DNA of 64,000 bases from a virus (taxonomy: Duplodnaviria > Caudoviricetes), in the IMG/VR virus record IMGVR_UViG_3300021387_000357, positions 1 through 64,000 of that record, one strand, 5' to 3'. Position numbers and translations under genes: made by a program. Below, piece by piece: positions 31,553 through 64,000 of the stretch (the first letter of the stretch is position 1; every line of letters starts with the position of its first letter). A model generated the notes under the pieces. That model was not told the DNA's origin. It saw only the letters and a program-made list of their open reading frames with translations, and searched no databases.

Positions 31553-31625
31553 GGCCCCGTCGACAAGCGGTCTAAGTCGTCGCCCTTTCACGGCGGAATC
31601 GTGGGTTCAAATCCCGCCGGGGTCA
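31553..31625 (+). tRNA. trnE: tRNA-Glu(TTC)
   Basis: Cloverleaf; loop CTTTCAC. Confidence 0.9.
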
Positions 31626-31757
31626 TTTAAATTATAATTCAATTTAATATATAATAAATAGTGGTGCCATGAGACGGGTATCTGGCTTAATTCTCCCCCG
31701 CAAGTACGCGCGAATGAAATTCTTGGAACATAGCCATTACTTATTATATAATATTTT

Positions 31758-31830
31758 GGTTTCTTCGACTAATTGGTAAGTCAATAGCCTATCACAGCTA
31801 ATTTTGTGAGTTCGAATCTCTCAGAAACCA
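31758..31830 (+). tRNA. tRNA with 8-nt anticodon loop (CTATCACA), identity unclear
   Basis: GGTTTCT/AGAAACC acceptor, GAC/GTC D stem, TTCGAAT T loop. Confidence 0.6.
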
Positions 31831-31832
31831 AT

Positions 31833-32005: not shown

Positions 32006-32079
32006 GGCCCGGTAGTGGAGCGGTTTAACACAGCTGACTCTAAATCAGCGGAACCTGGGTTCGAACCCCAGTCGGGTCC
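32006..32079 (+). tRNA. amber suppressor tRNA (anticodon CTA), tRNA-Glu-like body
   Basis: GCTGA-CTCTAAA-TCAGC anticodon arm; GGCCCGG/TCGGGTC acceptor; canonical T arm. Confidence 0.9.
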
Positions 32080-40440: not shown

Positions 40441-40514
40441 TGGGGTATCGCCAAGTGGCTAAAGGCGGCGGACTTTGACTCCGCAATACGTTGGTTCGAA
40501 TCCAACTACCCCAG
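40441..40514 (+). tRNA. trnQ: tRNA-Gln(TTG)
   Basis: U1-A72, G73; loop CTTTGAC. Confidence 0.9.
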
Positions 40515-40662
40515 CTCAAGGTTATTAATGAAATTCTCAATAAAATCATAGATAAACCCAGTAGCAATAGACTTTATGAGAAATCTCATTAACAATTGAT
40601 CTTGATGTGAAAATCAAGTCACTAACATATGACCGTGACAGCCGGTAAAATGATTTTATCAA

Positions 40663-40735
40663 TGGGCTATCGCCAAATGGTAAGGCAATGGATTCTGATT
40701 CCGTTATTGTGAAGGTTCGAATCCTTCTAGCCCAG
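40663..40735 (+). tRNA. trnQ: tRNA-Gln(CTG)
   Basis: U1-A72, G73; loop TTCTGAT. Confidence 0.9.
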
Positions 40736-42802: not shown

Positions 42803-43276
42803 ATGATATTGCTCTAGCATTATTCCTTATCTGATATTCTTATGTTTACTATTTTTTTAGCATTGTCAATTAAAAGTTTAATTTCTTTTTTTGATTGGGC
42901 TTATGTATATATAAAAAAAGCATTTAATATAAAATATTCTAAGATTACATAGAAATAGGAATTAGAACGTCGTTTACAAAAAGGAAGCGAAGTCATGACA
43001 GAATTAAAACAAAATCAATAGGCAACGGATAAAATTTTAAAAGATTTATCTACAAAAATTGATATGTTAATTAATTCAGATCGAGATGACATAAAATCTT
43101 ATATAACAAGATAGCATCATTATTTCTGTTATAAATTAGGATATATTGATGATTTTAGTCTTGATTGTATTGAAAAAAGATTTAAACATTATTCTGATGA
43201 AGGCGGCAATTCTTTTATAGAAAATTTTATGAAAGATTTAAGAGCTTTACCAATTCAATCGCCAAAAGAAGAATAA
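42803..43276 (+). CDS. membrane protein, holin-like (five in-frame TAG)
   Basis: GAGGGAGG RBS; N-terminal TM; SDRDDIKSYITR[TAG]HHYFCY...YSDEGGNSF; ends TAA. Confidence 0.65.
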
Positions 43277-43309
43277 TAAGTTTTATAGAGAAAAAAGGAG
43301 ATTAAGGAT

Positions 43310-46300
43310 ATGGCAATTACTTCAAATTTATATCCGCCTTTAATTAATGATACGTTGCCAAGTTTTATAAGAACAAAAACTTGTAGAATTTATTTTTCTC
43401 TTTCTAATTATAATTCCGCAACGGATATAAAAAATGTTCAAATTTCTTTAATAAATCAAAGAACAAACCAATCTGCTTTTGATACAATAAAATATCCTTC
43501 TGGAATAAAAATAGCATCAATGATATATGATTCTAATATTCAAAATGACTTTAATTATTATGTAGAAATACCAGTTAAAGATTTAGCTGAAGGCGTTTTT
43601 GGTTTAAATCAATTTTATAAAGTTCAATTGCGTTTTACATCAAAATCAGCATCAGATCCTCCAAGTTTAGGAAAAGGATTGGCGACTTGGTTATATAATA
43701 ATATGCAATATTTTTCAGAATGGTCAAAAGTTTGTTTAATTAAAGGTATTGAACAACCAATTATCACTATTAGAGGTTTTGATAATACAGAAGCTAACCA
43801 AGAAACAATTTTAACAAATGCTATTATAGACATAATTGGATAGATGCATTATAAAAATGGAGTAGCAGAAAAAGAATATTTAAAACATTATAACATTAAA
43901 ATATATCAAGATAATGATTTAAATACGGTTCTTTTTAATAGCGGAGAAATTTATACTAATTAGTACAATCCTAATGAAATAAATTATGAATTAGGATATG
44001 ATTTATCTGATGGAGTTAATTATATTCTATCTTTTACATATACAACAAATAACTTATATACAGAAACAATTAATTATAATTTTGCTATTATACAAAGAGG
44101 CATTGATAAATTAAATGCAACCATTACTGCAACACCAGATGAAGAAAATGGTAGAATAAAAATTAATATTGTTTCAACTGATAGTGAAAGATTTATTGGA
44201 AATATAACAATTAGAAGAACTTCTTCTAAATCAGATTTTCATAAATGGGAAGATATAAAAACTATTACTTATGTAACAGGACAATAGTTAAATTATTCTT
44301 GGTATGATATTACCATTGAAAGTGGGGTTTGGTATAAATATTGCGCTCAACGCCGCAATGCACGGGGCGATAGGGGAGTAATTATTCAGATTGAGAATCC
44401 TGTTATGTGTATATTAAATGATATATTTTTAACAAGGAATGATAAACAATTAAAAATAAAATTTAATCCCTCTTTAAATGAGATAAAATATAATGTTACT
44501 GAATCTCAACAAGTAACTATTGGTTCTCAATATCCATATATAAAAAGAAATGGAAATAATTATTTTAGAACATTTCCTATTGGTGGGTTAATTAGTTCTT
44601 TTATTGATACAACAAATTGGTATGACCCACATTTTTATGATGGAGAGTTTCATAATAATGAGAATGAAATAGGAGCTTTTACTTCTAAAAATGATATTTA
44701 TGGAGAATCATAGAGTTTATATAATAATTATAATAATAAAAATAATATAACTTAGTATAATGATTATATTTATGAAAGAGAATTTAGAAAAAAAGTTTAT
44801 GATTTTTTATATAAACATGATGTAAAACTTTTCCGCTCCACAACAGAAGGAAATATTTTAATTAAACTAATGAATATAGATTTTCAACCTGTTGAATCTT
44901 TGGGACGAATGTTATATTCTTTTACTGCAACCGCAGTTGAAGTAGATGCAGCTACTATATAGAATTATCAAAAATATGGAATTCAAAATGTTGGAACTTA
45001 TGAAGATTATATTACATATGAACATGAAATATTAGGGCAAATTCAAGGCACTTATAATGAAAATAGTGGAAATATCTTAACCAGTATTATTAACTCAAAA
45101 TATAGTAATCAAGCAAATAAAGGATTTTTAAATCAGGTAAATAACTTAAAATGGTTAAAATTAGAAATTAGTTCAGATCCATATCTAATTATTGAAGAAA
45201 ATGGATCACTTATTCAAGCAGATAAAAATTCTAATATAAACATTAATAATGCAACAGTTGGATATATTGTAGAAATTAATGGTGTATAGATGATTATTCA
45301 TCCGAAAATTATTAGAAGGACAGAAAATGCGGTTGATGGAACTGGACCTATTACAACTTCATATATAGGTTATTTTGAGTTAAAAGAGTCAAATACAAAA
45401 ATTACATCTTTAAAATTTAAGTATCCGACAACGGTTTCTATTGATTATATTGCTAATCTTAAAGAAATTGAAGATACTTCTCAATTAGCTAGTAGAATTT
45501 ACTATTTACAAAAACCTGGTCAGATATATGGAAATTTTGAACCTAAAGACTCTATTTTCCGTAAAATTTATAATAAATATCTATTAAATTATAAAAAATA
45601 TTATCAGAGATTGATAAGTATAACTTAGATACAAGTAGAAGGCTAGCCGGGAACAGTCGTTTATGTAAAAGATTCTAAAGACACAGAAGCTTCACGTCAT
45701 ATCTTACAAAATGGATATTTACAATTAAAATAGGATGAAGTTTTTATTGAAGGAATTTATTTTTGCGGCAAGCATCTTACTCAATGTACTGATCCGCTAT
45801 AGATTTCAACAGTAAATGGAATTCAAGATTTTATATTACAAGAAGGAATATATGATAATTTAAATGACATTAGTAATCCTATTAATGGTGGAATATATCA
45901 AATAAAAACTTATGGCATATCTTCTTCTGTTTTAAAAATGCAAAATCAAAAAATATTATTAGTTCCAGAAAATTTAACAGAAAAAATTGAAATTACACCA
46001 GACAATTTTTATACATTATTACTTGAAACAATAGATGATGATAATATATTAAAATTTGTATATTATTATGGTTGCTGGTATGTTTTAAATTAGGCTTTAA
46101 AGAAAAAAGTTGAATTATTAAAAAATGATATTCGACATATTAGAGATGATGAATATATTTAGACAAATGAACGATATGATGATTTTTCTGAAATAAAAAA
46201 TCCTATTAATAATGGAGTATATTGGATTTCTGATTATGCAGTAATGCACTCTATTTCTTTTGATAGAAATACGGGATTATTAACAATAGAAAAAGAAGAC

Positions 46301-46480
46301 GCTATATTAAAAACAGACCAAAATTTTGCTTTAATTGTTCAAAAATTATATGAAGCATCAAAAAATAGATATATCTACTATCATAATAATTGGTATTTAT
46401 TTACGCCAGACAATGATGTATTATGTCCAATAGATGGAATAGTTAATTATTGTTGTGAAATCGTGAAAGGAGTGTATTAA
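43310..46480 (+). CDS. large virion/baseplate-associated protein (~1056 aa, multiple in-frame TAG)
   Basis: ORFs 43310, 44405, 45290 and 46244 share one frame and, where read, are separated only by TAG. Confidence 0.75.
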
Positions 46481-46482
46481 TT

Positions 46483-48516
46483 ATGACACATAACTTTCCA
46501 TATTTAAAAGATATTAATTTTTTAAAATTATTTGATTAGACTAAATTAAAATAGCAATTTGTAAAACTAATAGTTTTAAATTTTAAAGAAATGCCAATAA
46601 CTGAAATTCAAGGAAAAGTAATAAGCGGGAATCTTAATTTAGACGGGTCTTCTGGAATGAGAAGGACTGGTAATATTACTTTAGTAGCGGATGAATATTA
46701 GAATGATCTGACAGATACTAAACATTTATTATCAATTAATAAAAAAATTTAGTTATTAATTGGTTTTACTAATACAACAAAATAGTATTCTGATTTTCCT
46801 ATACTATGGTTTCCACAAGGAATTTTTGTTATTACTGCACCAAATATTTCACATGGAATGGGCGGGATTAATATATCTTTAACATTACATGATAAAATGG
46901 CTTTGTTAAATGGAGAATGCGGCGGGACTCTTCCCGCCTCAGTCATTTTTCATTAGGTTGAAGATATAGATGAAAAAGGATAGATTTATATACGACAGCC
47001 AACAATATATCAAATAATTCAAGAATTAGTTAATCATTTTGGCGGATAGCAGTTGGGGAAAATTATTATTAGTGATATAGATAATAAAATTAAAAAAGTA
47101 ATGAAATGGACTGGTTCTACTCCATTGTATTTATACCAGAGCCTAGATAAAAGTAATGGACAGCTTTTAAATCATTTTAGCACTAATTATAATGAAGCAA
47201 AAGAAGGTTCTGGTACTATACAAGAATTTTCATATGGAGAAGATGTTGGATATATTTTAACAGATTTTACATATCCTGGTGAATTAGTTAGTAATGCAGG
47301 AGACACTGTTGTTACAATATTAGATCAAATTAAAAATGTTCTTGGTAATTATGAATATTTTTATGACATAGATGGTAATTTTAGATTTCAAGAAATTAAA
47401 AATTATTTAAACACATCATATTCCACTTTTAAAATTAATGAAATAAATGAAAATAATTATTTAGTTGATTATACAAGTGGAAAATCTGTATATACTTTTA
47501 CTGATGCAAATATAATTACTGCATTTTCAAATTCTCCTCAATATCAGCAAATAAAAAATGATTTTATTATTTGGGGAAAAAGGCAAACAACAGATGGCAA
47601 ATAGGTTCCTATTAGGTATCATTTGGCCATTGATAAAAAACCGTAGATAGGAAATGAATATAAGGTATTCTTTTTTACAGATCCGGATGATGGAATAGTA
47701 AAAGCAAAAAAACCTGTAGAATTTGATAATAGAGAAAGTTTCCCAACAAAAGGATAGGTTGGTAATTATTATCTTGCGGCAGATACTGCAATTATTTATA
47801 AATGGGCGTCTGATGTTCATAAGTTTGAACAAACCTCCTACACTATTTAGACAATAAAAACAACCGATTATAGAACTGAATTATATATGGCAGGAGTTGC
47901 TAGTTAGCCTTTTGGATTGAATAGTAATTATTATTATACTGAATTAAAAAATTAGTGGCCTAAATTATATAATGTGAGGGGGTCAAATCCAGGTTTTTTT
48001 GAAGAAAATATCTTACAACCAAGTAATATTGATTTCTTTTTAGATTTTATTGATACTAATTCTGCTTTAGAAGAATTTAATATTAATAATATTGGAAGAA
48101 GAACTGTTGTTTTAAATGATGATAAAATTAATTGTATTTTTTAGCCAAATAATCCAGATATAGTGATTATATAGGCTGGAACCTTAGATACAGATACAAT
48201 TAGAGAAGAATGTGAAAATAGAAAACAAGAATATGTACAAGTTAGATCTTAGTTATATTCTCTTTTAATGAATGGTGGTTTTTTAAGATCTGCTTATGAA
48301 TAGATGAGAAAAGAATTATATCAATATACCAATTATAATTAGCAAGTTTCTTTAACTACCTTACCGATATATTATCTTGAACCAAATGTAAGAATTACAA
48401 TTCGAGATGTTGAATGTGGTATTTATGGAGATTATATGATAAAATCTTTTTCTATTCCATTAGATGTAAATGGAACAATGTCTATTTCTTGTACAAAAGC
48501 ATTAGAAAGAATTTAA
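46483..48516 (+). CDS. baseplate hub/tail-associated protein (~677 aa, multiple in-frame TAG)
   Basis: In frame with ORF 47053; LDGSSGMRRT, WFPQG, YFYDIDGNFRFQEIKNY, LPIYYLEPNVRI motifs. Confidence 0.75.
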
Positions 48517-48539
48517 GAGTTAAAAGGAGAGCAATAAAT

Positions 48540-49238
48540 ATGTATCAAATTGGACAATTTAGAAAATCTCAAATGGATTCTTATTCGACTCCTTTACAAA
48601 TGACAATGGGATAGCAAGAAACAACCATTTCTTCTGAAGGAGATGTTATTTTTTATAATATATGTGGGAATTTAATAGGCGATAATGTCGTTAATAGTCA
48701 AAATTCTTATTATTTACGTTTTGGAGTTAGACAAAGAACCGATTCTGAACAAAGATTTTATTTAAAATTAAGAAATATTACTGAAATAGAAGATAATGAA
48801 CAGTTGTTAGAAGAATTTGTTGTTCCTAGCGGAGTTTCTATAATATATTTTGAAATAGTATTTACGCCTAATTCTACTTACAATCAAATACTTTGGGAAT
48901 TACAAAGAACTATTTTAGATTATCAAATGTTAAATACAAATAATAATCATTATGGTAGAGTAATGAATGTTGAAATACAAAGCTTTACTAGATTAATAGA
49001 TGTTATGACCACATTAAAAAATCTTTATCCTAATATGAATTATTTAAGTAAAATCGGGATTCAAGGCCCACCATCTATGTTAATGTGTATAAATGGAGAA
49101 CAGATAAGAATAGGAAAAAGCGGTATTTACGAAATTAATAATGGAATAATTAAAATTATTTCTATTAGTTTTGTTCCTAAATAGTCAACTCTTTCTTCAA
49201 ATCAAACAGATTATTTTATTATGGATTTTGAATATTAA
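48540..49238 (+). CDS. putative virion protein (in-frame TAG)
   Basis: AGGAG RBS; in frame with ORF 48804; ends TAA. Confidence 0.7.
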
Positions 49239-49255
49239 TTAGAGGAGGATTAAGA

Positions 49256-51109
49256 ATGTATTCTTTTTATGGCGGACAACCAGGTAATTCTTTTATAATT
49301 ATTACAACATATAGAAGTATTGCTGATATGGTTGCTAAATTTAAATTAGGATCAGAATATACCGCAGTTCATTTTGATTAGCATGTAATGATTAATACTG
49401 TTAATAAAAATGATCCAGATAATGGTAAAATATATAGACGCGGTTACGATTTTAATAATGATATGGGTGGAGCCGAATTTGTAGGTACTATAGTGGGTCC
49501 CGCAGGAAAAGCTCCAATGATAGAAATGACAACAATAGCAGATGTAAAAAGAAAACAATCATCTTAGGGTTATAGCTAGCGGCGTTCATCTGGAAGCTAT
49601 TCTGTATCTGAAAACAATCTAGTTCCTGGTAAAAAAACTGATGGAACTTTTAATGACGCAATTACATGGGAATGTTGCTCTATAAGAAATCAAAATAATG
49701 AAGATACTACTGCATATGTTGGTTTTACTTTTCCATATACTGTAATTGATGTAGAAGCAAAAACTGTATAGCCATATTCCAGTGGTAGATATGCTGATAT
49801 GAGCGGCGCCACCCGCATTGATGATTATAAACATCCCTTTTATGAGAAATGGCGATTAGATATTCCGAATGGAGTAAAAGGAGATAGTTTTAAAAATTTA
49901 AAAATTCAAGTTGCAGATTCTACTATTGAAGAATATTAGGGTCAAGCAGATGATATAAATAATAATCGTGAAGTTTTAGTATATGAATATTATAATTATG
50001 AAACTTTAAAGAGCGGAAATCCAAAAAAAATTTATTTAGGTGATTATAATAATATTGATAATATTTCTATGTCTTAGGATGGAACTATTACTATTGAATA
50101 TAGTCATGATAATGATAAAATTTTTAATAAAACTATAAAATGGATTGATGATATCGCTGTTGCAAATGATGGTACATTAACTATTTCTTGGAACAATGGA
50201 ACAGCTGATACTGTTTTTAATAAAAAAATAAAATGGATAACATCAGTTGTAATGTCTTCTAGTGGAAATGTTTCTGTAAATTATAATACCGATTAGAGTT
50301 TTATAATTGGACAAGTAAAATGGATTCATTCAATTGAATTAAACAGCGATGGTACTTTAGCAATTAATTATAATACTGGAGAAAGACAACTTATTGAAGA
50401 TCATAAAATTAAATGGATTGATAGTGCTCAATTAACAAATGGTCATGTGCTTATTTTTACATATAATGATGCAACTTCAGATACTTTTAACTTAATTCTT
50501 CCAAATAATGTAACTATAAATACAGGAACATTGTAGGGAGAAGGAACTCAAAAAGTAAGAGTATCTTGGACTAATGGAGAATATGCAGAAATTGGTAATC
50601 CTATTAATTATATTATGTAGGCAGCTGTTAATGATAATGAGCATTTACTGGTTCGATATTCAGATCCTGTAAGAAGAGCTTTAAGTACAACAGTGAACTG
50701 GGATGGAAAATCAGGCTGGACAGATATTGGTAGTTTAAAAGTTCCATATATATATGGAGATCCTGCGGCAACTAATTTAAAATGGTCTGGTATGGGGATG
50801 ATAACCGATTCTGAAACAGGACATTTAAGTGTTGTTTTTACAATGCCATTAACTCAATTATTAGATCAAAATATTACCGCGGTTAACATTACCAATGGTA
50901 GATTATATGTTGATTCTCAAAGTAGTATTCATGATTTAAATAATTTTGTAATGAATTCTACAAATACCACAGTAACTAAAACATTAAGTGGTTTAGAATT
51001 TCAAGTTCAAACAGAATATGAAAACTCAGGTGGCGCTTCAATAGAAATTGCAACAATTTTTATAAATCAATTAAGTTTATCATTCGTAAGACCTATAGGG
51101 GAGGGGTAA
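49256..51109 (+). CDS. putative tail protein with internal IKWI...DGT repeats (in-frame TAG)
   Basis: GAGGAGG RBS; in frame with ORF 50693. Confidence 0.7.
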
Positions 51110-51613: not shown

Positions 51614-54022
51614 TTAATCATCAATATACTTTTTCATATGACTAAAAGCTTCTGGATATGAAACAATTTCAATCCCATGATTAATAATATATTGAATTAA
51701 ATTATTAAAACTTGGATACCCTACTTGATAACCATTTTCATCTAATGAAGTATCCCATTCTTCCGTGCCCCAGGCATTAAAATGCGTACACAGAACAAGC
51801 ACTCCGTTTCCGCCTTCTTTTACATATATATCAATGAGACTCTTAACAGCATCCAATCTAGAATACTGATCACCTTCAGGATCATAAGCTTGACGCATAA
51901 TTCTGTATTTATCAATATGCTCATAGTTGTTATAATACCTATCGGAGGTAGTTATAACACTATCAAAATTAAAGAAACGACCTAACTTTTCTGTTCTTGC
52001 TTCTTTTCTACCGCCAGGAACCACCCAATGGTTTGAAGAAAGTAATCCATTTGTCTTCATAAAACGAATGGCTTTTGTTAAGTCTTTTCTTTGTTCATCT
52101 ATATTAGGACCAGTCGGTCTCCAATAACTATTATTCTGATTTGAACAATGTAACAACATGCCAAACCCATCGCCTTCATATTCTAATAACTTGTTAATGT
52201 CAACATTATTATCCTCTATATGTTGTGTCATTACGGCATAATTTCCCACAACTCCATTATGCTTACAAGCATTATAAAATCTATCAACATATTCGTTCCT
52301 GGAGGTATCGTCATCTATTATAGTGCATATATATCTGTCATATATTGGTGCTTTTGATTTTCTTTTATCAACTCGATATAATTTTATATTAGAAATACTT
52401 CCGTTAACCGTTGACAAATGATTAATCTTAATCCTCATATAGAATCCAACGGTAGTTATTGGAACGTTAAAAACAAATGGCTTGTGATTGATAAACAATG
52501 TAGAAGACCCATTTTCAAAAAAGCAGCCAATTTCAAATAATATATTATCATCGCTAGAATCAAAAATTATTTTATAAGCTTGACCCGGAATTAACCAGTC
52601 TGGAATCGTTGTCTGTTCATAATATAAGTTAGTAAGTGCATTGGAAGTGGTTGTTCCAGTCACAACACATTCTGAATTATCTTCGTTCCACGTAAAGGTT
52701 ATACCATTAACGGTTCTTGAAATATATGTAATATTATCCATATCAACATATGTTTCATTAGTTCTAAATAACTGTATAGTGATAATATCGTCAAAAACGA
52801 TTTCGTGAGCTATTATATACAATCGCATATTAATACCAGTAACAGATTCATCAACGCTGAAATCAAAGTCACTATATGAATTAATATATTCAATGGTATC
52901 TCCCCTATAAAGATACAATCTGCATACTATTTTGAAGTTGGCATTGTCAAAACGCACATGGTATTTTTTGTTTCGCTCAATCCAACTAGGCACCATTTCT
53001 GGGCTATAAATAATGTTTTTAAAAGACTGAGATGCCTATTGCGAAAGCGTACCATTTACTTTCCATATACCATTTTTTCTATACGTGTATGTAATGCCTT
53101 GCAATTCTGAACTATCCGTAACTCCAAATGCATCTAACAAATCCGTCCCTAACAACGTAAAATTATTTGTAACGCTTTCATTAAGAGTATCAATTTCATT
53201 AGCTAATTCAACATTTGTTTTAGCATTCAAAACTGCGATATTATTAACAACCACATTGACAGTATTGTTCGGATTAACTATAAACCGTATAATCATCCCT
53301 GTACAATTATCGGGAATATTCAATTTGCCATCAGCTTTAAATATTACTTCTCTACCGCCAGTCGATGCACCGTCAAAATATAATAAAAATACCAATGAAA
53401 CAATACGATTATCACTTATATAGCATTTTACTCTATAACTATTACCGGGTTCAATTCCTTCTGGTAATTTATTATAATTTACGTAGAGATTGTAGTTTGC
53501 TCGACTGCTTCCAGTTGTACCGACGACGGAGCATTCTGTTTTATCTGAATTCCAAGTAAAACTTACTCCTCCCGTTGTTTTATCAGTATATGTTACATTC
53601 TTCCTAAATAAATCCATAGGATTAAATTGGGAAAGATTATTTAAATCTTTCTTTAAATCAGTAATATTATCACCAACAACCTTACTATCCGCAGCAGAAC
53701 CACTTATAGTCAGACTCTAATCAACTGTCACCGCACTTCCAACAGGATTAACATTATTACTTAACCAATTAGTTACATCTATGCTAATCTGACTAGCTAT
53801 ATAACTATTCAAATCCGCAATATTTAATTTTCTATTATCTAATAAAGTAATTTGACTTTGAATAGATCCATTAGTATCTAAATCAACCTACCCAATTATA
53901 TCTACTATTGAATTAGAAGATGTCTCATCCCAAACAACATTTTCTGCTAATACTTGGACAGGTATATCGTCAGAATAAGTACCATCATCTTGTTTAATTC
54001 TAATACTTGTTAATTTATTCAT
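51614..54022 (-). CDS. tail fibre/spike with C-terminal polysaccharide-deacetylase-like domain (~802 aa, in-frame TAG)
   Basis: ATG 54022; ORFs 53036 and 51614 joined via TAG; TIIDDD...LLHC...WVVPGG NodB-like motifs. Confidence 0.7.
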
Positions 54023-54195
54023 TTATGTTTTTTCCTTTCTGATAAGGGATATTTTAATAATTTGATGATATTTTAAATATCCCTTATCTTTTTATATTTT
54101 CTAAGGAGGGAAATTTATTTAAAAATAATTTATAGAAAATAATAAACTATAAATATTTTTTATTTATTTTTACATGTTTCATTTAAAATGTACAT

Positions 54196-54345
54196 TTATT
54201 TAGTTTTAATTTTTAAACCAGTGATAATGTACCTATCACCATTGGTATCGTAAAAAATACCGTCATCTTTTACTGCCATTACAAACACGATCCCCATTTC
54301 CTTCAGAATTTCTTCTAACTTTTTTAAATTCTCGTTTGTAATCAT
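54196..54345 (-). CDS. small hypothetical protein
   Basis: AAAAGG RBS before MITNENL. Confidence 0.5.
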   Translation of the reverse strand: MITNENLKKLEEILKEMGIVFVMAVKDDGIFYDTNGDRYIITGLKIKTK

Positions 54346-54358
54346 GATTATACCTTTT

Positions 54359-56884
54359 TTATACCATCGGATTAAATACATCTCCATTGTATGTATAACA
54401 CTCCGTAAATTTCAATGTAGTATTCCCAGATTGAGTTACTGTATCTTCTACCTCACTATACATAGAGCATCCGCTAAATGTAATAGTTTTTGAATTAGTA
54501 ATGGTCATCGCTATAGCACGACCGAATTGGCAGTTTGCAAAACGGATTGCTGTACTTGCATCAATGATGATACTACCAAAGTGTATCTGCATACCTGTAA
54601 ATATTTCTCCATTCCCCGCGTTTAACAATTTAATGGCAATACCTGCGTTTGCCGTTCCATCTGCACCTGCGCTATGATTGATAGTGCAATTTGCAAACGA
54701 TCCATGTGAATTATTGGGAGATTTATTTCCTGTATTATCAATCATCACACCGATACGATTAGCTGAAAAATCACAGTTAGCAAAATTATTATTACCGCCA
54801 TTGTCGATACAACCATAGTAACATTCCTGAATAACACAATTTGAAATGCGATGGAATTCTGAGTAGTACGCTATATTCAGTCCGGCACTGCATCCGGCTA
54901 TCTCACAGTCTGAAATCAGCATATGAGTTGACATCGTAAGACCCGTTCCACTACATAACACACCACTTCCTGAGAAATTCTCAATAGTGCAGTTAATAAT
55001 GCGCCCTCTATACTGCGTAGTGCCATCAGACTGCCCGGAAATTTTCGTTCCTTCCCAGATAATACCATTCCTTGTACCTATCTCAGATTGATCTTTATAG
55101 TTTGTACTACCGCCCCTGATACGTAAATGCATTACCGTTGAGTATGACTTAAGTTTAACCGTATATCCATTAGTTACAGATTCGTTTAATGTCAGCGTGG
55201 TCTTGTTTCCGCACCCCGTCAGCAATCCATATGCCGGGATCTCTATACCTGTTACTACAAAATTGCCAGGACCAAGCTTGCAGACCCCTGTGGTATTAAG
55301 CATCGTCTGAATGTCCCCAGTGCGATCGGTATTATCATTTGTGGATGCCAGATAGTTGTTTGTGTCTGTGGTGATAGTAGGGGAACAGGTAATGTTATAG
55401 GTATTCTCGTAATGATTCGTTTCGTAGGTATTGTTGTATGTCGTGCCATTGACAGACATCCAGAACTGCGCACCATCTGAAATTCTGCGTATACCAACAT
55501 AAAACTAACTGTATGATGGGCATACAAGGTATAAAATGCTGTAAATCCTGATTAACTGATAAGTTACATTATCATGCCATGTTATATCCTGTATATCAAT
55601 AGCGTCCTTGAATTTTTTTGACAGTCCTGAATAAACGCAAAATTCTGTCATATCAATAAACGGATCAAATGTGACATCATCAGTAAAAAATGTAACTAAC
55701 GGCTTTCCTGGTTCAATATCACTGTTCGGTCGTGCATTAAGCAGAGCCATGTCTGATACAACTGCCGGAGTAACGGTAAGATCAGTTCCAGATTTAGTGA
55801 CAATAGATAGATTCAACCGTACAGCATTTGATGGTATTTTAATTGCTGTATCAACTTTCACCGAATTCTACTGAACTATATTAGACCCAGCATCATAGAA
55901 CAGATAGCGCAAATATACATTGTCATTGGTTGTCTTACATCGTGCAAAGTAAATCTAACCAGGCACAAGATATGACGGTAGACTTTCATTATAAAGCAAC
56001 CTGACGCTTGTGCTTGTTGCCAATCCGCTTGCAATGCAGATGTTACCACTCCAATTATATGTAATTCCATTATGACTTGTACTGCCTGTGACATGGTTAA
56101 ACCAATCACGGCACATATCATATACGTTAAAACGTACCAGATCATCTCTAGTAATCGTATTAAGGTTGCTAACTATAGTAATGGTACAGTTATAATCTGA
56201 AACAGCCATATCAACAACATCGTCTTTTCTGCATATAATAGTCAAATATCCATCTTGTGGGACTGTATAAATCGCATTAACTTTTCCTTTTGTCTTCCAC
56301 CCTGATGTAACAAATCCTGTTGACCCGGAGTTTTCGGTTTTCGGTACTCCAAAGTATACGTCCAAAGTCGGATTGGTATAGTAAATCTGCATCCCTTGTT
56401 TTACAGGGATCATGTTCATTAGTCTGATACGCTTTGTATTTGCAGATTTAGTCGTATAACTCCATGACCCAGACTCAAACATACTTACATCAAACTCAAA
56501 ATTACCAGTGTTCACAAATGATTCAGTTACACTTAATTGGTTTTTTAAATTTATATTTTCATTATCTAATCTATTTTTTAAAATATTATATATTGTACCA
56601 TTAGATCCGACTCGTGCATCAATTACTTCAGTATCCTAAGTAGCAGCAGCAATAATATTATTAAATCTGGTCTATAAACTATTAACACTAGCCTGTGTAG
56701 CTTTAGTATTTACTAAATTAATTATTTGATCTTGAATGGATGTTGAAATATCAACTTCCCCTAGCACATCAACAAGAGTATGAGAAGCATCCCAATCAAC
56801 ATTTTCTGCCAAAACATTAATTGGTATTTCATCACCATATGATCCATCATCTCTTTTTATTTTTATAGCATATAATCTATCCAT
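54359..56884 (-). CDS. tail fibre/spike with C-terminal right-handed beta-helix (pectate-lyase-like) domain (~841 aa, in-frame TAG)
   Basis: ORFs 56672, 55955, 55505 and 54359 join in one frame via TAGs; N-terminus paralogous to 54022 gene. Confidence 0.75.
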
Positions 56885-56978
56885 TAAAAAAGAAATCTCC
56901 TTTCTTTTTATTATTTTCAAATTTATATAAAAGAAAAAAGGCTATTAATTATTAATAATTAATAGCCTTTCTTATTAT

Positions 56979-57293
56979 TTAAATATTGCCTAATTTTGTA
57001 AAAATCTTATTTGTAATATAAACAATTTCTTCCCCATAAGTAGAAATTAAATCAGCAACTAATTCTTCTTGCTCAAGAGAAAGACTAACATTATAAGAAA
57101 ACATTGCGGCATGTGTAATTTCATGACACAAAACTTTCTTCAACAAATTTCCTTGAAGATTTTCATTAATATAAATTGTTCTAGTTAAATTATCACACGC
57201 ACCTATAGAGTACTAACCATTTAGCCTTTGTAACAAAGGAAAATCTGGTGCTACAAAGGCTAATTTCCAATACACATTGTTAATTAAAAACAT
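56979..57293 (-). CDS. small HExxH zinc-metallopeptidase-like protein (one in-frame TAG)
   Basis: KKVLCHEITHA; TAATG overlap with upstream gene. Confidence 0.7.
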
Positions 57294-60076
57294 TAGGCTA
57301 TTTTACTAGCAAGTGTAGTCATCTTCTGATGAAGAGTAGCTCTTTCCTCAGGAGATGCATCCTTAATCATTTCAGTAATATCTGTTGACAATTCTTGTAA
57401 ATATGCTTCTAATTCACGAAGTTGCGAATTAGGATCATTATGCATTTCTTTACCTTCCATATACATGCGGCGTCTCATTGGACTTCTACCTTCGCGGGGA
57501 TCCCGCCACATGTCACTAGGCATCTCAGTATAATAATTTGTGCCACCGCGGTTTCCGCCAGAACTAGAATTTGAGCCAGAACCAGAGTTACTACCATTAC
57601 CACCACCATAATACATATACCCATTATTTCTTTCCATTTCTCTATATGGATCAGTATACATCATTCTATTATAATTCATTGGTGTGGTGTAATAATTAAT
57701 ATTGGTTTCACTCTTATTTTCTTCTTTACTTTTTTCCATTGACTCAGTAATGGTACCATAATAAATAGCTTCAGCCAAATCTTTAATCATATCAACGGCT
57801 TCACTAAGTTCATGTGAATCGGCTTTAGAGATATCCCCAAGTTGTCCCTGAACACAGCTTGTCAATTGATCTTTCATCATTTTTAAAGTTTCTGTTGCCA
57901 TAATTCCTTATCCTCCTTAAGCTATTCTGTTTACTGATAATTCAGCATTACGTCTTATTTGAATAGACGGAGTTGGTGTTGTAGCTGCATCATCTTCAGT
58001 TCCATCCACGTATGTGGCAGATATAGTTACGCAGCATCCGCAAGGAACAGTAACAAAAGCTGTGGTATTAACATGCCAGTATTCTTCCGCCGCAGTAGGT
58101 GTTATTATTGCAACACTTTCTGGTATTACAGCACCATTAATAGTAATACCAACTGCAATTGGGGTCACAGCTCCGCCAGCAGGGATTTGAATATTTCCCT
58201 GAAGAGTAACTTCATATCTTGCAAAACGATTAGAGGTATTGCCATTTAAGTTAAGAATTCCAGGAGCAAGGGGAATAACATTCCCCTTGTTGCACGGAAT
58301 AGAAACACTATTAAATGGAATTGTACCATTTAATGCTACTAACGCATCTGTTGTTGTTACATAACTAGCCATAAGCGTGCCTCCTTATCAGTTATAGAAC
58401 GCGTTATTTCCGCATCCACAACCGCCATTATTGCAGGTAAAAATTGGAGTTCTACCATAAACAGGAGTAGAAGGAACTGGGCAATTGCTTAAACGATTGT
58501 AGAGTTGATCGACTTCATTAGAAAATCCTTGCTGAATGAAGGCATTTTGTGCAGTTTGAGATGCTGCAAGATCTTTCATAGCGATTTTCTGGCGAAGATT
58601 TGCAATAAGTTCATTCTTAGCATCAAGCTTATCCTGGCAAAGTTGGTCTTTAATAGACTGAATACCGCCATTAATAGTGTTAAGTAATGCCTGAGTATTA
58701 GCAACGCCCTGTGCGGTAACGTCTCTAAGAGCACCTTCTACAGCAGCTCTATCAGCACAGGCTTCAGTGGCAACAGTATACTTCAAATCAGCAACTGACG
58801 CACGATTTTCGCAGCAACAGTTCTGCTGATTCATTGCAAGAGTATTAAGTTGATTAGAAAGACCAGTTTGTAAACCAAATAATTGATTCATATTAGCAAA
58901 CTGACGTCCATTTTCAGCGATTTCTGCCTGAGCAAAGCCGTTTGCAACTCCTGCAAAACCTGAACAAAGAGCGCTATTAACACCAGCAAAACCATTAGTA
59001 ACTGCACCAGTAATAGCACCAAGGTCACTCATAATAGCTTGCTGGTCAAATCCATGCTGCACTTCGCTAGTAGTATTGAAAACATAAGGCACGAAACCGC
59101 CGCCTCCATTACCACCACCATTACCGCCATTGTTCCAGCCGTTATTATTACCCCAACCGCCTATTAAAATTATAATAAGAAGAAGGATAAGACCGCCATC
59201 GCCAAGGCCGCCCCAGTTACCATTATTACCGCCATTTCCAGTAGCTGCTGCAATATCTGCTAAAGAATAACCATTATTATTATTAAACATTATAAAATCT
59301 CCTCTTACTTTCCAAAAAGATAGTGATATTTACAAGTTACTTACATAAATTGGTTCCTAAGATTTGCTAATTCCTTATCAAAGTCCAAACCTCTTTGCGC
59401 CGCAAGATTACGTCCTAACATCTATAACCCAGATATATTACCCTTTTGAGCCATTTGTAAAGCATTATTGATAATAGGATTATTTTGACCTCTTTGCTGT
59501 AAAATACTCATCAAAAGTTGTTGTGGATTGCTCCCGCCTTTTATCATTTGAACTAATTGCATTGGATTTACATTATTCATAATAAATCTCCTTTAATTAA
59601 AAAGTCATCGGAGCTTTTGTTTCAGAATTATTCTGGGCTTGTTGCTCTTGCACGGGGTGTATCGCTGCCACCAGTGTTTGAATTGTTTTATTAAATTCCT
59701 CTTTTGTTACATATTCAGTAGAAGAATCATAAGGATTTTCATCTTTAACAAAAGCATAAGTCTTAAAAGCTGCGGTTCCATCATTATTAATCTGCTTAGT
59801 ATAAATTTTGCCATTACCTAAATCAGTAAACACCCAAAGAGAACCGTCTAAATCAATCTGACAAGCTCTAGCTTCATCTTTTGATGAAACTGGTCTACAT
59901 TTGATGTATTGACGAGATAACAAATCTTGAGAATTCATTCGTTGATTTCCCATATAATTGTCATATGGAATGTTGTTACTCAATAACATGTTATTGTTCC
60001 CATAGGGAGTTTGCATTTGCGGCTGTTGCCATTGAGGCTGCTGCAAACCTAGATTAGGATTATTGTAATTTGCCAT
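57293..60076 (-). CDS. conserved Clostridia-phage gene block: 57293..57901, 57917..58372 (BclA C-terminal-like), 58388..59290 (Gly/Asn-rich, CCCENR), 59341..59580 (one TAG), 59597..60076
   Basis: ORF track plus TAG read-through; GGAGG RBSs. Confidence 0.75.
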
Positions 60077-60281
60077 TACGTTTCCTCCTGTTGGTATACC
60101 AAAAATTATTAAAAATTAAAATACGCGCATATTGTAAGGATAAAACAATTAACTCTTTTTATTCCTACATCTATATATAAAAATTATTAACAATAAATTG
60201 ATTAAGTTTGACCAAAAAATTTTCACCTTGACAACTATAAAAATTTTTGTTACAATTGGCGTAGAAAAGGAGATTAGAATT

Positions 60282-60770
60282 ATGAAAGTTTTATCATTAG
60301 ATTTATCAACAAAATCAACTGGCTATTGTATTGGTTAGAATTAGATTATCATATCACATGGATGTGTTACCGCCAGTTCAAAAGATGTAATGAAACGTAT
60401 TATAAAAATGAGAAATGAATTATCTAAAATAATTAAAGAAAATAAAATATAGAAAATTATTATGTAGTAGGTGCGGCCAGATTTTAATTCACATACTGGT
60501 AAAATATTAATGTGGTTGCAAGGTATAGTAACAATGGCCGCATATGAAATTAATTCAACAATAGAATGGGATTTTATTGGGGCTTCAACATGGCGGGCAG
60601 CCCTTAAAATTAAACAAGGCCGCGGTATAAAAAGAGATGATCTCAAACCGCAAGATATATAGTATGTAAAAAATAAATACAATATTATAGTAAATGATGA
60701 TGAGGCTGATGCTATATGTATATTTGATGCTTATAATGAAAAATTTAATAATGAGATAAATTGGGAATAA
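60282..60770 (+). CDS. RuvC-like Holliday junction resolvase (six in-frame TAG)
   Basis: LSLDLSTKSTG (first Asp), KIIM[TAG][TAG]VRP (catalytic Glu position), DDEADAI (last Asps); sigmaA promoter and AAGGAG RBS. Confidence 0.85.
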
Positions 60771-60806
60771 AAAATAGGGATAGATTAATTCTATCCCTAT
60801 TTTTCT
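60771..60806. terminator. bidirectional terminator
   Basis: AAAAATAGGGATAGA-TTAAT-TCTATCCCTATTTTT. Confidence 0.8.
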
Positions 60807-60914
60807 TCTTTATCCTATTTTCGTACTTGAGCATTTATATAATTAATATAGCTTTTTTCAACATCAGAATAAATATCTTTTATAATATAATATATAACAA
60901 TTGGAGGCAATTCT

Positions 60915-62330
60915 TTAGAGTTTAATAATATAGTGATCTATTTTTTTAACTTCTCTGCTGTCAATGAAATCGTTTCCATTTACAATCCTCTTTTCTTCTC
61001 TTTTCTTAAATAATTGATAAAAATCTCTTAATCCTTTTTCTATTTCAAATTTTCTAAAATCAATACTGTATTCATCGCACCAAATATCAATTTCACAATT
61101 TTTTAACGTATTACATAATGGTTTATAAAAACAACTTTTACACTCTTCTTTTAATGGTGTTTTCTCTGCCCATTTGTTTATTTCATCTAAATCATAAGGA
61201 GTTTTATTAATATTTAAAGTATAATATCCATCATATGGATGATGCTCACATGTACTAATATATCCATTTGGTGCAACAACAATACTAACACCGTCATCCG
61301 CCATGCAATGAGTTCTTTTTATCCCTCTTTGTAAATGGATTTCTTTATTTAAATAATTAATCATTTCTTTATAATTTTCAAAAATTTTTTTACGATCTTC
61401 CTTTTTATTATTAGCTGAATTAAAATTAATTAAATCATAAATAGGAGAAGAATAAATTGAAAAATTAATATTTTTACCAAATTTATTTATTAAAAAATCA
61501 GCTAACTCTTTTTGCTAATTTACATTATTATAATCCAAATTCATTCTTATAACAACTTTTATATGATTTTTTAATAAGAAACTAATATTATTAACAATAG
61601 TTAAAAAAGGATTTTCTTCCTTTTTTATATTTTTATAGTTTTTAATTTTATTATATGCTTCTTCATATCCATCTATTGTAATTTGAAAAGTTTTTACATT
61701 CCATTTTTTTAAATCCTATTTAGAAAGATTTTTTATTAAATATCCATTAGATAAGAAAATAGATTGATATTTAATATTATTTTTATTTAACTGATCACAC
61801 ATATAATTAATAATTTTAGTATTTAAAAGAGGTTCTCCACCAAACCACCTTAGTTTTAAAGGAGACTATATTCTACCGCCTTTTCCACTTATAAAAAATT
61901 TTATTAAATCATCTATGACTTCAGTTGTCATAAACTAAGTTTTTATACCTTTTTCATAACAATAGTAACATTGAGCATTACATGCGGTTGTGGTTAATAA
62001 AGTACATGTTTTTATTCTATTAAATCTTTTTTTTGGGAAACGTCGTTTTAACTCCTGTATTGATAAATAATATAAAGAATAATCATCTATCTAAATTGGA
62101 ATTTTATACCAAGACTCTACTAATATTTTCTATATTTCTGAATTAAACTAATTATACTATATATTTGTTAATACTATAATTTCACCAGTCCAAAGATTAT
62201 ATATAATATATTCATCATCTTGTTCTATTGTATAAATATATTTTAACCATTTATATTTTTTAGTTGAATCATATTGTTGTTTTAAAATCGTCCTATCCAT
62301 TGTTGTATAACTATTTTTTATAACTTTCAT
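60915..62330 (-). CDS. radical SAM/SPASM-domain protein (in-frame TAG)
   Basis: CNAQCYYC, WFGGEPLL, QITIDG, C-terminal C..C....C..C...C cluster; GGAG RBS before ATG 62330. Confidence 0.85.
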
Positions 62331-62346
62331 AATTTAATCTCCAAAA

Positions 62347-64000
62347 TTACCAACCAGGTCCATAACATTCAGTATCACAACTGCATTCCCATTCATCACA
62401 CTCTGATGGTGGAGTATAATCACATCCGCCACACTCCCATTGACCACACTATTCATCACAGTCCTACTAACATTGGCCACCACATTCTGTATCTATATCA
62501 GAAATAGCTTCCCAAATATTTTTAAATTCTTGAGCAATAGAACCGCCATCATTGTCATAATTATTAAAACCACTTCTATTAATATTAATTAAATCCATAG
62601 AATAAAGTGCACGTCCAAACACCTGTCCGCTACCATTCACAACAAAATCATAATCAAACGGATCATCACTTTCTCCCTATCCATCACTACTAAACCACAT
62701 CCACCATTCATCTGAATCATTTAATTTTGCAGAAATTGCCATAGAAGGATCTTCACTTTCATTAGCTAAAATATTTCTATGATAATTATCACTAATAACA
62801 AAATCACCTAAATTAATTTCTTTACTAGTAACATTAAAAAAGTTTTGACTACCAATGTTAATAGAAAAATTATCGCCATCATATCTTAAATAATTTCTTG
62901 ATGATGATGTAAAATCAAATTTACCATCTGCTCCTAAAAAAGCACCTGCATTACTACTTGCAAAAGCATTTTTATTAACAGTATGTAAAGAATTTGCCTC
63001 AATAGTCCATCCGCCTATTGTACCTGCAGTAGATTTTATACTACCATCAGAATAGACTTTAAATAAATTATTAATATTAAATCTTAAAGATTTTCCGTCC
63101 TATGTATGTTTTTCATTTGCATATAAAATACTTTTATTGTCATTGCTTGAGAATGAATCAGTATTAATTTTCCATCCAGCTATTGTTGAAGTTCCACCAG
63201 GAATCAACTTAATTTGTCCCTAACCTGCTCTACCAAAGGTGGCATTGCCAGTATCTGCATCTAAATAAATACTAGTAGCACCTTTTGAAAAACCAAGTAA
63301 ACCATTATATGTAGTTGCATTACCGCTATTTAATTTTACAGCACCCATTACAATCCCTGTAAATCTATTGTTGCTGTCTTTAACTCCAGCCCCCATTTGA
63401 GGAGCTAAAATATATCCACCTTCTTCGTTAATTTGAACACTATTACCATCCCAAGCATTTAAACTGGCTAAACCATAACGGTTCAATAAAAAATGAATTG
63501 GAACACTTAATCTACCAATAATAACTCCTTTTTGTGTATATACACAAGTAACCGCATTATTAATACACTATCCATCATATTTAGAATTAGGTTTATATTT
63601 CCATTGATTTTTATTTAATTCTTTTCTATATGCTTCACTTGATAACAAAATTAATAAATTAGAATTAATTAAATCACCAGCCTTATTTCTTTTTACATTC
63701 CCGCATGATCCTGGCGTATAACTAATAGAATGACTTCCATTAACTAAAGAAACATCTTCCCAAACATTATTAATTTTTTCTTTACAGATAAATTCAAAAG
63801 GATGGGAATTATCATACTGCGGTGACGTACCATCTGGCGTATATATAACATATCTAAAACCAGTATAATCTGCTAAAAATACTCTAAAATTACTATTATA
63901 TGTCCATGCTGTTGTAACAGGAATGGTTCCATAATATGTTTTATTTTCATATGTAATACTACATTTAATAGTATTAGCTAAAGGCGTATTTAATGCACTA
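62347..64000 (-). CDS. 3' part of large tail protein ending in a Cys/acid-rich tail (partial; in-frame TAG)
   Basis: In frame with ORF 63220; LNRYGLASLNAWDG, GTIGGWTI motifs; C-terminus CGGQC**DCDE*CGQWECGGCD... Confidence 0.7.

Follow-up and report, generated by a model that had tools for sequence, protein, structure and literature searches.

A phage amber suppressor tRNA with an acidic-type body and a probable TAG = Glu code

The stretch of DNA analysed here (the window) covers positions 1-64,000 of a contig of 82,767 bp from a gut or rumen phage (GC 31%; CheckV completeness 62%). It carries an array of 21 tRNA genes at 30.2-40.8 kb, within which ARAGORN and Rfam RF00005 concur on a tRNA with the anticodon CTA at 32040-32042. 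The features on which the argument draws are the following.

32006-32079, + strand: amber suppressor tRNA(CUA), 74 nt, with a canonical cloverleaf (ARAGORN; Rfam, 57.7 bits; covariation in 11 homologues)
32006-32012, + strand: acceptor 5' strand GGCCCGG, with G1 paired with C72 (32078) and G2.U71 as in Firmicute-type tRNA-Glu
32015-32031, + strand: D arm of 17 nt, with U11-A24, G13.A22, a long D loop and the extra bases 20a and 20b
32040-32042, + strand: anticodon CTA within the loop CTCTAAA (32038-32044), invariant in 11 of 11 homologues, with A36-A37-A38 present
32050-32054, + strand: variable loop GGAAC, 5 nt, Asp/Lys-like; 4 nt in the local tRNA-Glu and in 4 of the 11 homologous suppressors
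32079, + strand: discriminator C73; every Glu-code suppressor has A or C here, and none has G
31553-31625, + strand: phage tRNA-Glu(UUC), used as comparator (GGCCCCG/CGGGGTC, G1-C72, G2.U71, A73, 4-nt variable loop)
40441-40735, + strand: two phage tRNA-Gln genes (UUG, 40441-40514; CUG, 40663-40735), both with U1-A72 and G73
42803-51109, + strand: late/virion genes containing 48 in-frame TAG, 19 of them in 46483-48516
51614-64000, - strand: further TAG-containing genes (51614-54022, 54359-56920, 60915-62330, and 62347 onward past the window end)

The match to RF00005 spans 32006-32079 on the + strand with 57.7 bits (E = 1.4e-10; gathering score 29). The acceptor stem GGCCCGG/TCGGGTC contains the pairs G1-C72, G2.U71 and G7.U66 and is followed by U8, A9 and the 17-nt D arm GTGGAGCGGTTTAACAC, whose 3-bp stem includes U11-A24 and G13.A22 and whose loop AGCGGTTTA holds G18G19 plus two extra bases after position 20. 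The anticodon stem GCTGA/TCAGC encloses the loop CTCTAAA, the T arm is CTGGG-TTCGAAC-CCCAG, and C73 is followed by CC. The marks of an elongator tRNA are present, namely a 7-bp acceptor, G18G19, a 5-bp anticodon stem, a 7-nt loop with U33, and a TTCRA T arm. The first-pass annotation, which had been made from the letters alone, had the anticodon, G1-C72, U11-A24, C73 and the 5-nt variable loop right, as judged by ARAGORN, Rfam and segmentation of the gene; it had also likened the acceptor and D loop to those of the local tRNA-Glu, a likeness that stands (GGCCCGG/TCGGGTC against GGCCCCG/CGGGGTC, with a Glu-like D loop), and had ascribed U1-A72 and G73 to both local tRNA-Gln genes, as their segmentation bears out.

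Eleven distinct homologous CUA tRNAs, found in the tRNA arrays of related IMG/VR phages, align readily. Among them, 99.1% of the cells of the cloverleaf are paired and 15 of its 20 pairs show compensatory changes, a level of covariation that none of 500 shuffles matched and to which slid structures likewise did not come close. At the level of sequence, these comparisons confirm, far beyond chance, that 32006-32079 is a real, conserved and apparently functional tRNA gene. It has what would be expected of a phage amber suppressor: a CUA anticodon, many in-frame TAG, and homologous CUA tRNAs in 12 related contigs. In the arrays of the relatives, tRNA-Met(CAU) lies directly 3' of the suppressor gene in 10 of 11 cases, with tRNA-Thr between the two in G004, and the suppressor gene often adjoins tRNA-Glu or tRNA-Asp. 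A scan for promoters and terminators around the gene gave nothing above the shuffled background and no site directly upstream. ARAGORN labels the gene tRNA-Pyl because of its anticodon only. That identity was ruled out: the cloverleaf is canonical, the traits of tRNA-Pyl (a short D loop without G18G19, a 3-nt variable loop and a 6-bp anticodon stem) are absent, and searches for a PylS C-terminal domain in the contig and three complete relatives found none.

Reading TAG as sense opens long frames in the late region, such as those of 1056 aa with 13 TAG and 677 aa with 19 TAG, and a frame of 2884 aa with 53 TAG beyond the window; 151 in-frame TAG are spread across 14 long ORFs. No comparable opening of frames is seen when TGA is read as sense, and in-frame TGA is unused in this phage genome. 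TAG-free genes sit between the TAG-containing genes of 51614-64000, where a gene on the + strand (60198-60770) also has TAG. In the TAG-containing genes, GAA, GAG and TAG account for 4.95%, 0.66% and 1.51% of codons, or 7.11% together, as compared with 7.14% for GAA plus GAG in the TAG-free genes. GAG is rarer in the former than in the latter (0.66% versus 1.50%), and AAG and CAG are likewise depleted (42803-64000 and the contig beyond). This suggests that TAG has largely replaced GAG in an A/T-ending codon regime.

The meaning of TAG was read from the 677-aa tail-like gene, aligned with 59 relatives, some of which use the standard code and others of which have recoded TAG or TGA. In the columns of the window's 19 TAG, E occurs 467 times in the 59 relatives, N and K 94 times each, D 66 times and Q 33 times; compared with the 18 standard-code relatives, these columns hold 34-45% E and 3% Q. 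The log-odds at TAG against the 18 relatives without in-frame stop are +14.3 for Glu and -20.9 for the next-best residue. The same method yields Gln for five relatives (L025, L026, L034, L042 and L046) and Trp for TGA in eight others; these calls in sister clades provide an internal control, so that the method can be said to separate E, Q and W on one alignment. Furthermore, a tblastn comparison of five window genes with standard-code loci gave E 190, N 63, D 56 and Q 31, and the fit per residue of the TAG columns to the window's own columns was best for Glu (-2.44), followed by Gln (-2.90), Lys (-2.95) and Asp (-3.23), with two Gln-code relatives coming out as Gln when their empirical column profiles were used as controls. 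Tail-gene log-odds, five-gene tblastn and column profiles all favour Glu over Gln, as the first-pass annotation had supposed. Among translations of TAG as E, Q, D and K, that with E has the highest Pfam score for RuvC (21.1 versus 20.2, 18.8 and 18.4, respectively) and for Radical_SAM (39.3 versus 37.6-38.2), a support that is weak because the margins are below 2 bits; a PDB sequence search with the RuvC-like protein gave no usable match. On these alignments, the reading of TAG as Glu in this phage, and not as Gln, is well supported, and some mixed decoding, in which Glu is accompanied by a little Gln, Lys or Asp, is possible.

It could be argued that the suppressor nevertheless ends up with Gln, the usual 'code 15', and that the Glu columns reflect the ancestry of TAG from GAG and not its decoding. 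In all published recoded phages, TAG has been interpreted as Gln (10.1101/2021.08.26.457843, PMC9523058, PMC10607447): in phages with a code unlike that of the host, the preprint of Borges et al. reports only TAG->Gln and TGA->Trp (10.1101/2021.08.26.457843), Peters et al. (PMC9523058) and the phAss-1 paper (PMC10607447) take TAG as Gln, and a 2026 jumbo-phage survey assumes the same. Our full-text literature search returned no report of TAG = Glu in phages, the searchable papers giving only TAG = Gln. Moreover, the GlnRS of E. coli readily takes CUA anticodons (PMC9976931). However, TAG occupies strongly conserved Glu columns, one column of the tail gene showing, among 58 relatives, 50 with E and 8 with TAG, and the same alignment and method clearly give Gln in sister clades. 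In addition, the suppressor has G1-C72 and C73, as against the weak 1:72 pair of the phage's own tRNA-Gln and of Gln-code suppressors. We consider decoding as Gln to be most improbable.

The first-pass annotation had described the suppressor as having a tRNA-Glu body. Because similarity to phage tRNAs alone is ambiguous (Asp 0.66, Lys 0.63, Glu 0.61), bacterial reference tRNAs were added, which were picked by D arm and are hence biased toward Glu and Asp alike. With the anticodon arm left out, the nearest neighbours are bacterial tRNA-Glu (0.81-0.77) and then tRNA-Asp (0.77-0.75; leave-one-out accuracy 0.85). Isotype profiles (leave-one-out accuracy 0.81-0.85) place Asp slightly ahead of Glu for the window copy (-47.2 versus -52.2), with Gln far behind; Glu is top for 8 of the 11 suppressors and Asp for the window's subclade, and for the G001 copy, one T-loop base from the window's, Glu exceeds Gln by 19.8 log units. 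In a maximum-likelihood (ML) tree of 160 tRNAs, all 11 suppressors fall in a clade with 31 Glu and 23 Asp tRNAs (support 0.905) and with no Gln, Lys, Asn or Cys tRNAs; two of them nest with tRNA-Glu (0.72), and the other nine, including the window's, form a group of their own (0.85). The tRNA phylogeny that had been proposed as a check thus sets the suppressors apart from Gln and in the company of Glu and Asp, and the sister group of the window's nine is compatible with either a Glu or an Asp ancestry.

The 19 nt from U8 to C25 of the window copy (the D arm plus U8 A9) are identical to those of Staphylococcus tRNA-Asp. Among the D-arm variants found in bacteria, GTCA..AGAC, which some of the homologous suppressors have, is typical of tRNA-Glu, and GTGA..ACAC occurs in both Glu and Asp tRNAs. 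The underlying pattern scan covered 185,579 species genomes and found no bacterial amber suppressor; its matches outside tRNAs were due to chance in coding DNA or to tRNAs cut at contig ends. BLAST of the window copy against 101 Clostridia genomes matched only tRNA-Lys(CUU), over positions 26-64 (anticodon and T arms). Neither the D-arm scan nor the 101 Clostridia genomes yielded a close bacterial parent, such as a near-identical tRNA-Glu, and nothing in them was closer than about 80%; blastn against 50,697 phage records gave only five weak partial matches (mycobacteriophage tRNA-Gln/Glu and Listeria phages).

At the level of single identity elements, G1-C72 and G2.U71 of the acceptor are as in local and bacterial tRNA-Glu; E. 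coli has U2-A71. The augmented D helix required by E. coli GluRS is incomplete: the suppressor has U11-A24, but it has G.A at 13:22 and a variable loop of 5 nt. Among the anticodon-loop determinants U34, U35, C36 and A37 of GluRS, CUCUAAA keeps only U35 and A37, a loss that is unavoidable because of amber reading. The identity set of E. coli AspRS comprises G73 with G34, U35, C36 and C38; the suppressor has C73, C34, A36 and A38. Nor is it of the Gln type, having G1-C72, C73 and a 17-nt D arm with two extra bases. With tRNA-Glu and tRNA-Asp of Firmicutes it has in common the acceptor GGCCC../..GGGTC, G2.U71, U11-A24, the D loop AGCGGTTTA and the T arm, and it differs from them by the CUA anticodon, A38 and C73. 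The upper body is best called acidic-type (Glu/Asp) and is clearly unlike that of tRNA-Gln; the anticodon arm appears reshaped for UAG. Of the proposed tRNA-Glu body, the acceptor, the D loop and the placement in the Glu+Asp clade hold up; a specifically Glu origin is at odds with the slight lead of Asp, the D arm of Staphylococcus tRNA-Asp and the Lys(CUU)-like anticodon and T arms.

The same features raise the possibility that the suppressor accepts Asp or Lys, or is promiscuous. In support of this idea, apart from the profile scores, the D arm and the BLAST matches already given, the variable loop is Asp-like, the anticodon arm is Lys(CUU)-like, and many E. coli amber suppressors with U35 and A73 insert Lys (PMC9976931). 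Against it, the TAG columns in standard-code relatives hold 7% D and 9% K, whereas D makes up 64% of the Asp columns and K 42% of the Lys columns; the AspRS determinants G73, G34, C36 and C38 are all absent; and C73 takes the place of A73. Charging with Asp or Lys thus appears very unlikely. The body of the window copy alone would not assign Glu over Asp, and it is the codon evidence (Asp 7% at TAG columns) that decides for Glu.

The 11 suppressors comprise those of the main TAG-recoded clade and of the pair L029/L033. The Glu call is firm for most of the 11 contigs and weak for G008 and G010, and G011, with only one TAG in its tail gene, is assigned solely by its place within the TAG = Glu clade. 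Their 1:72 pair is C-G in five, G-C in three and G.U in three, with U-A or A-U in none, and their position 73 is A or C and never G; all of them have a long D loop of the Glu/Asp type. The lack of U1-A72 and G73, which had been pointed out for the window's suppressor, therefore extends to 11 of 11 Glu-code suppressors. Four Gln-code contigs carry suppressors with U1-A72, A73, 16-nt D arms and long variable arms. In phAss-1, for which three suppressors and TAG = Gln were reported (PMC10607447), the two suppressors in the stretch examined have A1-U72 with G73 and a long variable arm, and U1.C72 with G73. These two genes, both Gln-type in keeping with the published reading, are adjacent at L297:1486-1654 (-), about 62.4-62.6 kb of OQ749652.1. 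The TAG-meaning test on the phAss-1 tail gene itself gave no signal at 6 sites, and since that gene is too diverged, the authors' Gln reading was used. A weak or mismatched 1:72 pair is thus found in 0 of 11 Glu-code suppressors and in 4 of 4 distinct Gln-code types, cases that are not phylogenetically independent; the comparison left out G039, G049 and G051 (tail genes L044, L056 and L058), where the meaning of TAG was not called.

This split fits the published preferences of GatCAB and GlnRS (PMC2811023, PMC9976931). [quoted passage not shown] For position 73, G73 serves GlnRS and AspRS, the latter together with three anticodon bases, A73 serves LysRS, and no discriminator is required by E. 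coli GluRS (PMC9976931). Because E. coli GluRS is indifferent to this position and C73 avoids the bases used by GlnRS, AspRS and LysRS, C73 may be a specificity feature; the base, raised by the first-pass annotation as a caveat, is real and probably poses no problem.

How, then, would the suppressor be charged? Some hints suggest a Firmicute host: a lysin-like protein contains choline-binding repeats, and the phage is a distant relative of phAss-1 (tail proteins 32% identical) and of Enterococcus phages about 140 kb in length. Six-frame searches of the contig and five complete relatives found no class-Ic synthetase or release-factor domain, so that the lack of such genes noted earlier for the window holds for the rest of the contig and these relatives as well; a 99%-complete relative, whose suppressor is one T-loop base from the window's, is also without synthetase and release factor. 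The first-pass annotation had reasoned that the tRNA escapes amidation by GatCAB. The U1-A72 requirement on which this was based agrees with PMC2811023, but the argument is too narrow: at least 91 of the 150 genomes sampled from the class Clostridia have a GlnRS that scores above the curated cut-off, which makes rejection by GlnRS as plausible as escape from GatCAB. The decision between Gln and Glu may be taken by GlnRS rather than by GatCAB, and the features of the suppressor fit both routes.

We suggest that this tRNA is the phage's own UAG decoder, that it is charged with Glu by the host GluRS, and that it inserts Glu at roughly 150 TAG, a reading to which we would give a probability of about 0.7 from sequence comparison. 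The suppressor would be transcribed with the tRNA array that precedes the late genes and charged with glutamate by host glutamyl-tRNA synthetase, and Glu would go in at the roughly 150 in-frame TAG of virion and lysis-side genes. Acceptance by GluRS would be due to the acidic-type upper body (G1-C72, G2.U71, U11-A24 and the Glu-type D loop) together with U35 and A37. The tRNA would stay a Glu tRNA because the marks for GatCAB (U1-A72 and a short D loop) and for GlnRS (a weak 1:72 pair and G73) are absent; C73 may further disfavour LysRS (A73) and AspRS (G73), and the loop CUCUAAA with A36-A37-A38 is probably adapted to a codon that starts with U. Several points speak against charging with Glu. 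Of the determinants of E. coli GluRS (PMC9976931), the window copy has neither U34 nor C36 nor the U13-G22:A46 triple, and it has a base 47 where none is expected; its profile is slightly more Asp-like, and its anticodon arm and variable loop resemble those of tRNA-Lys(CUU).

These missing determinants (PMC9976931) also bear on a different explanation, in which Glu is real but its charging needs an unrecognised phage factor, and not the unaided host GluRS. Such a factor might be a synthetase-like protein of a new kind, might modify the host GluRS or the tRNA, or might inhibit RF1, GlnRS or GatCAB. Many phage genes are without known function, and 38% of the genome is missing from the contig. 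The searches for class-Ic synthetase, release-factor and PylS domains described above, however, found none, and an engineered E. coli tRNA-Glu amber suppressor, as Normanly and colleagues are said to have found in 1990, inserts mainly Glu with no helper. We regard the involvement of such a factor as unlikely.

Charging by the host GluRS can be placed in the wider context of the phage family. In the tail-gene tree, which is based on one gene and may be affected by recombination, the main TAG = Glu clade is monophyletic, includes the window and has a TAG = Gln clade as its sister; the second TAG = Glu pair, L029/L033, lies among standard-code and TGA = Trp phages. The loci L001-L059 of this one family cover four codes: standard, TGA = Trp, TAG = Gln and TAG = Glu. 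It would be tempting to infer that, in this family of large Firmicute phages, a few identity nucleotides of the suppressor set the meaning of TAG, a 1:72 pair containing G or C without G73 leading to Glu and a weak or mismatched pair to Gln, and that the Glu/Gln machinery of the host feeds both. By this means the family would have passed between its four codes, TAG = Glu having arisen at least twice, and TAG = Glu would be an undescribed phage code. We put this forward tentatively, judging the odds of the whole to be a little short of even.

Recoding of stop codons by suppressor tRNAs is known in phages; what would be new is the meaning TAG = Glu. The 'code 15' phages (crAss-like, Lak, Agate-type and phAss-1) have the same placement of a CUA tRNA in a tRNA array without a phage synthetase, the same use of TAG as sense in late, structural and lysis genes next to TAG-free early genes, and the same low GC and standard-code hosts. 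They differ in that TAG is taken as Gln there and aligns with Glu here, where the tRNA combines G1-C72 and C73 with a body of acidic type; in the suppressors of phAss-1 the 1:72 pair is A1-U72 or U1.C72, together with G73, and in those of the Gln-code sister clades it is U1-A72. A counterpart in its charging is the suppressor 'GluA' attributed to Kleina, Normanly and co-workers (1990), an E. coli tRNA-Glu with a CUA anticodon that is reportedly charged mainly with Glu despite its lost anticodon determinants. Both have CUA on a body of Glu type or, in the phage tRNA, of Glu/Asp type, and the phage tRNA would likewise be charged by a resident GluRS. 'GluA', however, is a laboratory construct in which only the anticodon differs from tRNA-Glu, whereas the phage tRNA occurs in nature, has diverged, serves an entire set of recoded genes, and has a 5-nt variable loop, G13.A22, C73 and A38. 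In the nuclear code of peritrich ciliates (NCBI table 30), TAA and TAG are read as Glu through tRNAs with stop-reading anticodons. That code is eukaryotic and genome-wide and goes with an altered release factor specificity; here, in contrast, a virus would impose the reading on a standard-code bacterial cell and in part of its own genes only.

TAG is translated as Gln (NCBI table 15) in the recoded-phage papers that were searched and in the underlying databases. Should its meaning be Glu in a sizeable group of phages from gut and rumen, their deposited proteins would carry a neutral residue in place of an acidic one, including at catalytic and metal-binding sites. The family could further serve as a natural experiment on tRNA identity, in which homologous phages with the same gene order have suppressors that differ at the first acceptor pair and the discriminator, and codons that differ in meaning. 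A few tRNA mutants would suffice to test directly how a stop codon is given an amino acid by a virus that relies on the enzymes of its host alone, and such tRNAs are candidate parts for Glu-specific amber suppression in Gram-positive bacteria.

Several further observations concern tRNAs of unusual form. Three TAG = Gln relatives have CUA suppressors of 99 nt (L170:14465-14563; L171:10559-10657, -; L172:14666-14764, -) with U1-A72 and A73, in which the variable loop is replaced by a perfect 6-bp hairpin whose 7-nt loop, CTCTGAC, is the anticodon loop of tRNA-Gln(CUG); ARAGORN labels these genes both as CUA readers and as tRNA-Gln(CUG). Possibly, the hairpin acts as a decoy for the anticodon arm and thereby ensures the Gln identity of the tRNA. 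In the unrelated IMG/VR contigs L064, L066, L071, L087, L090 and L098, the CUA tRNAs are 84 nt long, with a long variable arm and an identical 17-nt anticodon stem-loop, GCTGACTCTAAATCAGC, and other body types occur in L074/L077/L085 and in L099; these unrelated types may stand for other meanings of TAG. The complete TAG = Glu relative G021 also has a tRNA with the anticodon UUA, of the ochre type (L137:12223-12297, +).

Within the window, few ORFs longer than 150 aa are found at 1-22000 under table 11 or with TAG or TGA as sense, so that this part has either many small genes or an unusually low coding density. Directly after the tRNA-Glu gene lies a tRNA-like gene (31757-31831, +; Rfam 46.8 bits) with an identical copy at L131:5781-5855. 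Its body is Glu/Asp-like and its anticodon loop, CTATCACA (ARAGORN 'atca'), has 8 nt; the gene might be a copy in decay, might read four bases (as a frameshift suppressor would), or might be a UCA reader in disguise.
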